Virus record (IMG/VR): IMGVR_UViG_2713896799_000023
Strand: one strand, 5' to 3'
From: a virus
Lineage: Duplodnaviria; Heunggongvirae; Uroviricota; Caudoviricetes
DNA: 64,000 nt
The position numbers were made by a program. Positions within the stretch are counted from its first letter, which is position 1. Every line of letters begins with the position of its first letter. Positions 21,001 to 24,000 of this stretch are shown in pieces.

Positions 21001-24000
21001 CGGCAGGTAACGCTCAACGCTGTTACTCCCCGTACACACGCCCAGCAACACCAGAACATAAGGGATACCATCAGCACTGAGCACAGAACGCAGCACCAAA
21101 AAGCCATCAGGTGCCTCAAAACAAAACGCCTGCTTTTTAAGGCAGGCGTCTTTAACTTCATTCATAAATTCAGGGTTGCGGGAATTTCTCACAACACGCT
21201 GCATATACCAGAGAATTTTATCGTTCATTCTCTCACCTGAAACGGGTGCCATATCGGCTGAACCTCAGCAACCAGTTGACGGGGACTCTCGTCCCCGTCG
21301 CGGTTTTCCTACTGCTTACACTGTAAGAACGCCGCAAACTCCGCTCCCCACAAATTCAGCCGGAACTCACACAGTGAACCGTGCAACATCCAGATGGTGA
21401 AGATAACCGTCATGCAAATTGTGACGGTGATAAGCGATTTTTGCGACATAGCGCTTGACTCCTTTTACAGAGAGGCGCTAACCTTCTACTTGCTTAAGGT
21501 ACGAAGTGTTAGGGCCTCGGGTTAACGTTAAGTTGACTCGGGGCCTTTCCACATCAGGCCTTCAGGTTCACCCTCCAGCCATCAGCCGAAAGGCATCCAC
21601 GCATAATTTACGGTTTTTGCCCTGTACGGGCAATAAAAAACCCGCCATCACAGCGGGTAGTAAACGGTTACCGGATACAGGTCAGAATTTCAGGCCAATG
21701 CCAGCAGTAACGCCACTCGTGCGCCAGTCGCCAGAGCCGGAACCTTCGTAAGCCACATCCAGTGTAACACTCTCATTCAGGTTAAACTGTGCACCTGCAG
21801 CCCACGCAAGGGAGGTTTTTTTCGTGCTGTTGCTTTCAGAAAATCCGCCACTACTGTTAATATTGTCCTTAATTTTCAGGTCAGCGCTAACTTTAGCAAC
21901 GCCCATCCCTGCCATCGCATATAAACTCATGTACTGATTAACCCGCCATGAAGGCCCCGCTAACAGACTCCAGTAATTCGCCCTGATATCCGTTCTGGCA
22001 GAAGCTGCCGGATTCTTAATCTTCCTGGTATGATCGGCTGACTGCACATCAATAAATGTCTGTGAGTTAGTGAGAGAACGCGTCCATGTAAAAGAGGTGA
22101 TAACGCCAAAATCATCCGTTATCTCGTAGCGATACCTGATATTAATGCCCTGTGGATTTTTATCCTTGCCTTCATATCCACTGACCCGACCATCTGTATA
22201 TTCGCCCAATGAAGAAAAGTAGTTTCTGTTGACGAAATGACTGAAAGTCTCCCTGTTATGAGCAGTCGCATCCTTTACAAAATCCTTCAGTCCCGGAAAC
22301 TGAAAGTGCGCATACCCCAGAGAAATTGTATGCTCTCCTTCTGCTGCATGTGCAGATAAATTTACACAGGCAATCCCGGAGATTGCACACACAACCAGTG
22401 TTGCTATACTCTTCATTTAAGATATCCTGTATTCAGATAACACGCTAAACTTTTTAATAATACATCTTTTTAGACATTTTAAATGAATATTAAAGACTCG
22501 CTTCAACTAATCATATACTGATGTATTAATAACCAGGACCTTATCTATATACGGCTTTCGAATATCCCATGTTGCACCACCGGAATAATGCTCACAGGAA
22601 TATATTTTATTTCCTGTAGCACCAGTGGATGTGGTATAAATCGGTCGATCATAAGGAGTTCTTTTCCAGTTATAATACCCGACCAGTGCAGGCATGATTG
22701 CGCATGGATATCCAAGGTCCTTTTCAAATTTGATATCAACAGGTATTAACTTCGCGTCAAGCAGCATCATTTCGCCATGATAAATCATCTCACCGTCCGG
22801 GTTATACATGGCGATACCATACTCAGAAGGTGGAGTAACCATATTCGCGAAAGCATAAACCGTCGTAACACCAGGGTTCGTTCCCCTGACAATTACATGA
22901 AGCCTTAGTGCATGATATCCATCAATCTGTTCATGCGTGTACATGACATCGGCCTTCTTCTCTGTTCTGATAAAGAAAAAACAACTTTTGCCTGACGGGA
23001 TTGATGTTTTAAAAAAAGACTTTTCAGTCGCCGGTATGGTGCCTTTGTTGATCAGACACTGCGGCGTAAAACCTGGACTTATCCATACGCTGCCATCCGG
23101 CTTCATAATGCTCAAACCGTACATAACACTTATCCCCAGAATGTATAAATATAAGATCCCATACCCTGCTCAAGATTCGACCACGTCACCGTATTGTCAT
23201 TAATGGTTATCTTCGGTACTTTCCGATCCGCAAATACATTATTCCAGGGAAATAAACAACATACAGCCTGCAATGATTTCCCGTCGGGTTTATTAGTGTA
23301 CGTCTTTGAGCCAGACTCCGCTGTAAATCTGTCCAGGAAAAATACTGGAGTCAGCACGCCCGTAACATTAACGTTATTTCTGTTATAAATGGCAAAACCG
23401 TATTCCAATACTCACCTCCTGATCAGCGTAATCTGCCTATGCGAACAGCCAGTCGTCCATTCTGATCATAAACCTCAATTTTATCATTGCGGATCACCAG
23501 TCCTACATTCTGATTAGAGTAACGAATTGTCAGTTGCCCTTGTGACGTAACACTGAAAAGGCCTCCAATATTCAGGTTACCCTGAGAATCAACCTGAAAG
23601 TTTCCGTTCTGAATAACGGCACTCCGGATAACTGGCGAAGTGATACTTACCCCGGCTTTTACCTCATCCGCCACAACCTTCCGCGACACCAGTGTTTCAA
23701 TCACCGCGTCATAAATCATCGCTTTCGGGATCACAACCTTGCCACCTGATACCGCAAACGGATAGGCGGTGTTATCCGGGTTGTTCGGGTCAAAGACAAA
23801 CAACTGCGACGCAGAAATTGCAACCTGACTTACAGGCCTGCCTTCACTGTCTTTTCCGGCGACAATCCCGATCCCCGCAGTGATACCATCAACTCCCGCT
23901 TTTTTTGACCACATTGCCAGAAACGCCTCACCGCCTTCTTTATCCAGTTTAGTGATGCGCTTGTCGACCTCATTAAGCGATTCACTGGTTGACGAATCCA

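Follow-up and report, generated by a model that had tools for sequence, protein, structure and literature searches.

A HokA-like hok gene and its predicted sok-type antisense RNA in a mobile cassette beside lom of a Stx2a-converting phage

Introduction

Is the small open reading frame (ORF) next to lom in the Caudoviricetes genome IMGVR_UViG_2713896799_000023 a genuine toxin gene of the Hok/Gef family and, if so, does it come with the RNA elements by which such genes are held silent? The stretch of this IMG/VR record that was analysed, hereafter the window, comprises 64,000 nucleotides (nt), and the ORF lies on its minus strand at 21309..21449. The original prediction, made from the sequence alone, took it for an unannotated hok/gef-family type I toxin gene between lom and a cluster of ejection genes, and expected mok/sok-type antisense regulation in the untranslated stretch upstream. 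In the present study, the identity of the gene as a hok proved secure, and the locus is in all probability a type I toxin-antitoxin cassette of the hok/sok kind, which a Stx2a-converting podophage carries as a moron, an accessory gene dispensable for phage growth. The regulatory model we infer from sequence conservation, from energetics and from the paradigms of plasmid R1 and of hokW-sokW.

In hok/sok of plasmid R1, the paradigm of these systems, the toxin mRNA is made from a promoter of its own and comprises a leader of about 150 nt, the hok gene and a 3' element able to pair with its 5' end. Opposite the hok Shine-Dalgarno sequence, a promoter on the other strand drives an antisense RNA of some 60 nt, which consists of a single-stranded 5' tail and a long hairpin. 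The window cassette shares this layout and differs from R1 as follows: the two peptides are only 34% identical, the sok model matches below its threshold, no mok frame is present, and the copies in Stx phages have no terminator after the fbi-like element.

Results

The coding sequence (21309..21449, minus strand) runs over 46 codons from ATG to TAG, and the 46-amino-acid (aa) translation given in the original prediction was reproduced exactly. Its assignment to the Hok/Gef family was borne out by two curated profiles, Pfam PF01848 (HOK_GEF; 33.2 bits against a gathering score of 22, E=4e-8, peptide residues 8-44 on profile positions 6-42 of 42) and PHROG 251 ('MokW-like host killing'; E=2.8e-24, 85.8 bits, residues 1-46 on profile positions 2-49 of 50), together with the pattern of conserved residues. 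As stated in the text of a survey preprint on Hok peptides (Escalera-Maurer et al., bioRxiv 10.1101/2025.08.07.668861), M1, C16, T18, L30, C31, E32 and E41 are conserved in more than 80% of 1264 Hok peptides. Protein alignment recovered all of them in the 46-aa peptide, as M1, C12, T14, L26, C27, E28 and E37, with C12, T14, L26-C27-E28 and E37 falling on their counterparts in HokA, Hok of R1, HokW and HokB. With every conserved residue in place, the match is therefore not restricted to low-complexity hydrophobic sequence, a concern that had been raised along with the original prediction. The size and shape of the peptide are likewise those of the family (about 46-55 aa, a hydrophobic N-terminal helix and the conserved positions).

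Within the family, HokA is the closest characterised relative. BLASTP identity was highest to HokA (45% over 40 residues), followed by PndA (38%), HokW (36%), HokE (35%) and Hok of R1 (34%), and the best NCBIfam model was the HokA equivalog NF007290, at 38.4 bits below its cut-off of 89; judged by these comparisons, the peptide is HokA-like and not HokA. With the product of the chromosomal hokA-sokA locus of E. coli it shares the MxQK N-terminus, the FTWM/IWM, SLCE and E(L/F)AAFL(A/Q)CK motifs and a second cysteine (C44 in the window peptide), and both cysteines are hard-coded in the two peptides, so that no TadA recoding is needed. It differs from HokA, which has 50 aa, in lacking two transmembrane residues and the C-terminal tail. 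The hokA gene, moreover, sits at a fixed chromosomal site, in contrast to the mobile prophage cassettes of the window type.

The frame has been well kept. All but one of the 59 distinct nucleotide variants (58) retain an intact 46-codon ORF. Within the window allele, at most 8 nucleotides differ between variants, every one of these differences is synonymous, and the pairwise ratio of nonsynonymous to synonymous substitution rates (dN/dS) between hok alleles lay at 0.0-0.62. Such values point to purifying selection on the ORF. We accordingly take ORF 21309..21449, by its sequence, to be a genuine Hok gene rather than a chance frame, and its predicted product to be a single-pass inner-membrane peptide, a HokA-like member of the Hok/Gef family.

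Upstream of the gene, a putative sigma-70 promoter can be read from the sequence at 21605..21633 on the minus strand (-35 TTGCCC at 21633..21628, a 17-nt spacer and -10 TAAATT at 21610..21605). The TTGC core of its -35 box and the -10 pattern TAnAnT are kept in all genomic contexts of the locus, though the sequence farther upstream is unrelated. The predicted mRNA 5' end is G21598, and cross-context homology starts just upstream of this position. From there extends a leader of 149 nt (21450..21598, minus strand), whose first 17 nt or so form a tac-like element. The Rfam sok model RF01794 aligned to the leader with 28.2 bits (E=2.4e-4 in a search of 701 nt), starting with model position 1 at 21598 and running to the hok start; as aligned, the model lies on the hok-sense strand.

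At the other end of the transcript, an fbi-like 3' element, UCAGCCGAUAUGGCACCC (21244..21262, minus strand), is complementary to the mRNA 5' end, and it is here that cross-context homology ends. When duplexes were ranked, in 57 of 59 variants mRNA nt 1-20 paired best with this element (-24 to -31 kcal/mol); the second-best was a local hairpin with nt 31-60, and the two pairings exclude each other. Across 58 distinct sequences, the two 5'-3' helices had 97.8% and 87.4% of cells paired, as against 35-50% in slid controls, and substitutions on the 3' side were retained as G.U pairs at three positions (in 15, 28 and 6 sequences). Partition-function calculations on 11 lineages gave a probability of 0.75-0.99 for pairing of the 5' end with the 3' element, with the Shine-Dalgarno sequence unpaired at no more than 0.02, and after modelled removal of the last 38 nt, 9 of the 11 had their 5' end in the local hairpin instead. 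The pairing of tac with fbi, by which the mRNAs of hok/sok systems fold back, was thus found in silico at the window locus.

Two further structures stand out in the same mRNA. The hairpin GGGGAC-GAGA-GUCCCC in the 3' untranslated region (UTR; 21280..21295, minus strand, with an extended stem 21300..21277) shows two-sided compensatory changes at 4 of 9 base pairs, 99.8% of cells being paired in the 58 distinct sequences. The interval 21277..21300 also reads terminator-like on the plus strand, as a stem followed by CGGTTTTCCT, and in that direction it could stop transcription running antisense into hok. The second structure is a helix that would sequester the hok start codon, in which AUGUCGCAA pairs with UUGCGGCGU late in the coding sequence; it is 99.8% paired and hardly varies. 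A different fold was returned by RNAalifold on the full mRNA, with the local 5' hairpin preferred and GGCACCC weakly paired with the hok start region; we discounted it because the seeming covariation there involves columns lying outside the conserved cassette.

On the opposite strand, the expectation of sok-type antisense regulation upstream of hok found support in silico, in a conserved antisense promoter, a strand-asymmetric hairpin and the sub-threshold Rfam sok match at the predicted mRNA 5' end. The predicted sok promoter occupies 21455..21484 on the plus strand, with a -35 box TTGACT (21455..21460) opposite the hok Shine-Dalgarno sequence, an 18-nt spacer and a -10 box TAACCT (21479..21484). 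The -10 box is invariant in 58 of 59 variants, and the -35 box reads TTGACT, TTGCTC, TTGCCT or TTGTCT, the TTG being kept throughout. A consensus promoter scan of both strands (9-of-12 rule) called no promoter, as both predicted promoters score below the rule; that of sok was missed because its -10 box matches only 3 of 6 consensus positions.

From this promoter we predict a Sok-like RNA of about 60 nt (21490..21549, plus strand), made up of a single-stranded 5' tail of about 20 nt, a 16-base-pair hairpin (21511..21547) and a UUU run. Over the same interval, the antisense strand folds at -34.3 kcal/mol and the sense (mRNA) strand at -19.2 kcal/mol, an asymmetry present in 35 of 35 variants, which arises because G.U pairs turn into C.A on the other strand. 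Two alleles of the hairpin exist, differing by compensatory changes in the upper stem. The 5' tail is the most variable stretch of the whole cassette, and this variability would fit cognate-pair specificity in genomes holding several copies. The sequence features of a hok/sok antisense RNA, namely a promoter of its own within the hok leader and a terminator-like hairpin, are hence present for this predicted RNA, whose shape is the one that a Sok RNA should have.

The locus turned out to be widespread. A 'distant' blastn search with 21229..21625 as query located it in 1750 of 5426 complete E. coli genomes, in up to 9 places per genome, with homology over query positions 8 to 382 (window 21618..21244) and with matches always annotated Hok/Gef; from this count we infer that the search did not pick up the hokA loci. 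The conserved block measures about 375 nt (21633..21244), alignment similarity beginning at the TTGC of the -35 box and ending 3-4 nt past GGCACCC. It was found in four settings. In Stx podophages it follows lom (copies L001, L002 and L007-L010). In P2-like prophages, phage P88 and an ST131 prophage among them, it follows ogr at the prophage end (L003, L004, L011-L013). In a lambdoid prophage it occupies the place that lom has in lambda, between J and the side tail fiber gene stf (L006), and in an O157 island it neighbours the ure genes (L005, L014). The recurrence of the same block in four unrelated contexts marks the hok locus, as far as sequence comparison goes, as a mobile cassette. Where the cassette lies outside Stx phages, an intrinsic terminator follows 25-50 nt beyond its end.

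A few copies depart from this pattern. Two of those with the lom|hok|ORF context, L009:628-1002 and L010:628-1002, have a near-identical leader, 3' UTR and flanks around a Hok allele (MPQKTIIVSILC...) that is only 54% identical, which suggests that recombination affected the coding part of the cassette alone. The outlier L071:551-925 (and L072) has a 5' end GGACACC that is non-complementary to an unchanged 3' GGCACCC, a sok -10 box TAAGCT and a divergent hairpin around an intact ORF; this copy is probably decaying or recombinant. A scan of assembly contigs yielded only 5 loci and added little diversity, three of them being probable contaminants: the occurrences of the E. coli/Salmonella hok cassette in an 857-nt 'Xanthomonas pisi' contig (peptide 100% identical), in a contig of a Planococcaceae metagenome-assembled genome and in a Vagococcus assembly (L015, L016 and L018) are most likely due to assembly contamination.

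How does this locus relate to the hok gene already studied in Stx phages? For the hokW-sokW pair of Sakai prophage 5 (Sp5), experiments have addressed toxicity, an antitoxin activity of sokW that depends on RNase III and Hfq, and a part in phage release; after mitomycin C, the pair hastens the arrest of growth and makes the release of phage twice as high (Takada et al. 2021, PMC8621323). This system, too, is of type I with a Hok-family toxin and resides in a 933W-like Stx2 phage. No other hok of an Stx phage has been studied experimentally, and we at first took the window locus to be hokW-sokW. This identification was rejected, as neither the published primers nor the HokW sequence match. The published hokW start primer finds only 9483..9503 in the window, with 3 mismatches, and the probe oligonucleotide YO-597 finds no match in it. 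HokW itself is a 51-aa peptide (MKQQKAM...) of the HokD cluster (35_712), 36% identical to the window peptide, and is encoded near the other end of the late region.

What the window holds at that end is a decayed hokW/hokD-like ORF at 9482..9598 on the plus strand, whose 38 aa (MKAAKGDVNHPAHLCITVIVTALITKKDLCKGGIPRHL) score 22.7 bits on HOK_GEF (cut-off 22). The remnant is 72% identical to HokW over 18 residues, has a frameshift at its start and breaks off after the DLC motif, and neither a leader nor a sok part could be recognised beside it (region 9300..9700). In the RefSeq record of phi191 it is still named 'Hok/Gef family protein'. Two unrelated hok loci are thus carried by 933W-type phages, of which, in the window, the studied one is decayed and the unstudied one intact. 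The present gene being distinct from hokW-sokW, the RefSeq/PHROG name 'MokW-like host killing' is therefore misleading.

The gene is by no means new to databases. A query of 701 nt that includes the ORF gave matches of 100% identity in numerous E. coli chromosomes (O104:H4, O111, O157 and others) as well as in the Stx-converting phages P13374, phi191, 933W, VT2-Sakai and others. The NCBI Prokaryotic Genome Annotation Pipeline (PGAP) names the product 'Hok/Gef family protein' in RefSeq (WP_000078907.1), and phage records carry 'prophage host toxic membrane protein', 'small toxic polypeptide' or 'MokW-like host killing'. The description of the ORF as unannotated therefore holds for older records only, such as the original entries of 933W and VT2-Sakai, both of which omit it; it fails for RefSeq and for several phage records. 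Nor can novelty be claimed, as the survey preprint lists the identical peptide, under 72_1589, in Hok cluster 72 with 'high abundance' (10.1101/2025.08.07.668861). There is no difference at the protein level between 72_1589 and the window Hok; a related cluster-72 allele, 72_1621, is the P2-like prophage form, seen here in L003 and L013.

The arabinose-induced toxicity assay proposed with the original prediction has, going by the text of the preprint, already been reported on the identical peptide. In that text, 72_1589 was cloned under the arabinose promoter as pAZ3-72_1589 (plasmid LRP157), 42 of 45 tested Hok homologs were toxic upon arabinose induction, and the three non-toxic homologs are named as 19_179, 60_1482 and 69_1540, without 72_1589 among them (10.1101/2025.08.07.668861). 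Transcript or phenotype data for the native hok locus were not found in the literature searched. The hok gene is thus already known, being annotated in RefSeq, contained in curated families, catalogued and toxicity-tested. As the same preprint states in its text, mok, Sok and mRNA structure were deliberately left aside there, and the RNA anatomy described here adds to that survey and does not contradict it.

Turning to the neighbours, lom (21682..22416, minus strand; PHROG 108 match, Ail/Lom in PGAP) precedes the cassette, and the terminator scan placed its intrinsic terminator at 21640..21658 on the minus strand, an 8-base-pair stem (ACCCGC...GCGGGT) followed by TTTTTTATT, directly upstream of the hok promoter. 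The stretch before hok, first described as about 230 untranslated base pairs in which antisense regulation was to be expected, is not all untranslated leader and resolves into 232 base pairs comprising the lom terminator (21658..21640), the hok promoter (21633..21605) and the 149-nt leader (21598..21450).

On the other side, PGAP starts the next, hypothetical gene at 21252, inside the conserved hok 3' element (AUGGCACCC), which is also present in contexts without any downstream gene. In the product of this gene, the match to the PHROG 610 profile does not begin before residue 9, which points to a start at 21228, and one phage record uses the ATG at 21228; the gene is, on this alignment, probably 125 aa and not 133 aa long. 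Because the PHROG 610 alignment indicates this start, the interval 21229..21681 that had been singled out is the true intergenic space between lom and the next gene. The label of an ejection-gene cluster for what follows could not be confirmed, the downstream genes belonging to PHROGs of unknown function. Within the PHROG 610 coding region, a terminator-like hairpin at 21127..21144 on the minus strand (GCCTGC-TTAAAAA-GCAGGC, then GTTTTGTTTT) is the first such site that the terminator scan found downstream of hok in the Stx-phage context, about 100 nt on.

Elsewhere in the window, Rfam matches at gathering level lie at 817..933, 44574..44833, 46242..46490, 55993..56180 and 57016..57099. They comprise an ALIL pseudoknot (IS3-type frameshift site), STnc100 and AsxR beside the stx2 region, three tRNAs, isrK, C4 antisense RNA and sRNA-Xcc1, a set typical of a Stx2a prophage.

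Discussion

How firmly can the locus be read as a hok/sok-type cassette? Several observations weigh against this reading and deserve to be considered together. Both promoters, both 5' ends and the 3' end of the Sok-like RNA are predictions. In the covariance-model search that had been proposed with the original prediction, the match starts exactly at the predicted mRNA 5' end, but its 28.2 bits fall far below the RF01794 gathering score of 59, and at that level the model has no match anywhere in the 64,000 nt. Only one pair of the 5'-3' helices changes on both sides, their support consisting of conservation, energetics and one-sided G.U changes. The opening of the Shine-Dalgarno sequence after modelled 3' truncation is small and uneven, the unpaired probability moving from 0.00-0.02 to 0.00-0.26. 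In the window lineage, a derived G-to-A change at mRNA nt 3 (21596) weakens both 5' pairings, giving -24.2 and -17.9 kcal/mol, as against -30.9 and -23.0 kcal/mol, for the 5'-3' pairing and the local hairpin; the A is found in the window and in the IMG/VR copy L021, and all other aligned variants except the L071 outlier have G. The copies in Stx phages have lost the cassette terminator and have the start of the next gene in its place, the next site lying about 100 nt on, inside that gene. The toxicity of 72_1589, moreover, is read from the text of the preprint and not from its figure.

To these points must be added the want of a conserved mok frame: in 40 of 59 variants, no frame initiated upstream runs across the hok start. 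The site that we take to correspond to the R1 mok start reads AAC in the window, and it reads CCCUAAC or CCCUGAC in the aligned variants, with the L071 outlier and one AAU variant (L038) as the exceptions. An invariant AUG, preceded by GAAGG, does occur at mRNA nt 45 (21554..21552); the ORFs that it opens vary from 1 to 78 codons (8 in the window) and reach hok in 7 of 59 variants. Both this ORF and a 24-codon GTG ORF at 21552..21478 were considered as mok and rejected, as neither frame is conserved. The mok-type part of the regulation originally expected is hence not supported, there being neither a start at the presumed R1 site nor a conserved frame across the hok start, and a conserved mok is, by the aligned sequences, absent from the HokA-like cluster-72 subfamily.

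Could the cassette, then, be a silent relic, in which the hok ORF still looks intact while its regulation has decayed, so that Hok is never made natively and the cassette lies idle for phage and host? The missing mok frame, the terminator lost from the Stx-phage copies and the G3A change at the mRNA 5' end of the window lineage could all be seen in this light, as could the second, clearly decayed hok of the same window and the failure of the native chromosomal hokA, hokB and hokC loci to mediate post-segregational killing, which the text of the survey preprint recalls. We nevertheless hold this to be very unlikely. The ORF is full in nearly every variant, variation of the window allele is synonymous throughout, and dN/dS between alleles stays below 1; conservation of both promoters, of the Sok hairpin and of the complementary 5' and 3' elements extends over all four contexts; and the cassette is still spreading through its 1750 genomes and up to 9 copies in each. 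The missing mok, which extends to every lineage, is then a trait of the subfamily and not a sign of decay in the window copy.

Taking the locus as a hok/sok-type cassette, we propose the following course of events. The hok mRNA would be transcribed from its own promoter, starting near 21598, and would at first be translationally inert, with its 5' end paired to 21262..21244 and its Shine-Dalgarno sequence sequestered. Upon trimming of the 3' end, the 5' end may refold into the local hairpin and loosen the translation start. Meanwhile, a Sok-like RNA of about 60 nt would be produced from the promoter overlapping the hok Shine-Dalgarno sequence on the other strand, pair with leader nt ~48-108 and keep the toxin off, probably via RNase III cleavage of the duplex as reported for hokW-sokW. 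As no mok frame is conserved, Sok must therefore act other than through mok-coupled translation, and it could do so on the stability of the mRNA, on its refolding or on the short leader ORF at the AUG of nt 45.

A different origin of Hok has also to be weighed. The hok gene is part of the late region and shares its strand with the tail-fiber genes, with lom and with the virion-region genes that follow, and the terminator of the cassette has given way to the next gene. Hok might be translated mainly from late-operon read-through out of lom and serve as an accessory lysis or permeabilising factor, the Sok-like RNA only silencing it in the lysogen, with no addiction module involved. The faster growth arrest and doubled phage release that hokW-sokW of the related Sp5 brings about after mitomycin C (PMC8621323) would accord with such a function. 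Just upstream of hok, however, stands the strong intrinsic lom terminator, though late antitermination could override it. The thermodynamic model, furthermore, keeps the 5'-3' lock and the sequestered Shine-Dalgarno sequence in the read-through transcript from lom, just as in a 481-nt transcript reaching the 21127 terminator. The same cassette, besides, is borne by P2-like prophages at their outer end and by a non-phage island, where it receives no transcription from a late operon. We therefore regard read-through as the main source of Hok as improbable.

For a hok/sok-type cassette in a prophage, candidate roles are prophage retention, exclusion of other phages and help in lysis, as with HokW. 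One may go further and speculate that, in this mok-less subfamily, the Sok-like RNA directly controls a self-locking hok mRNA, and that the loss of the terminator in Stx phages ties Hok to lytic development, as a HokW-independent helper of lysis and release or as a superinfection or abortive-infection device. We offer this as a doubtful conjecture; if true, it would amount to a modest variation on the hok/sok mechanism, with a role specific to phages.

As a discovery, the hok finding is of little weight, and its practical value lies in an annotation fix: the records of 933W and VT2-Sakai omit the gene, and the 'MokW-like' label confuses it with the separate hokW-sokW. What remains of interest is the missing mok, the terminator lost in Stx phages and the coexistence with hokW. 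As the survey preprint remarks in its text, the role of prophage hok genes in general is also unsettled (10.1101/2025.08.07.668861). Present in about one third of complete E. coli genomes, the cassette would make a convenient test case for that role.

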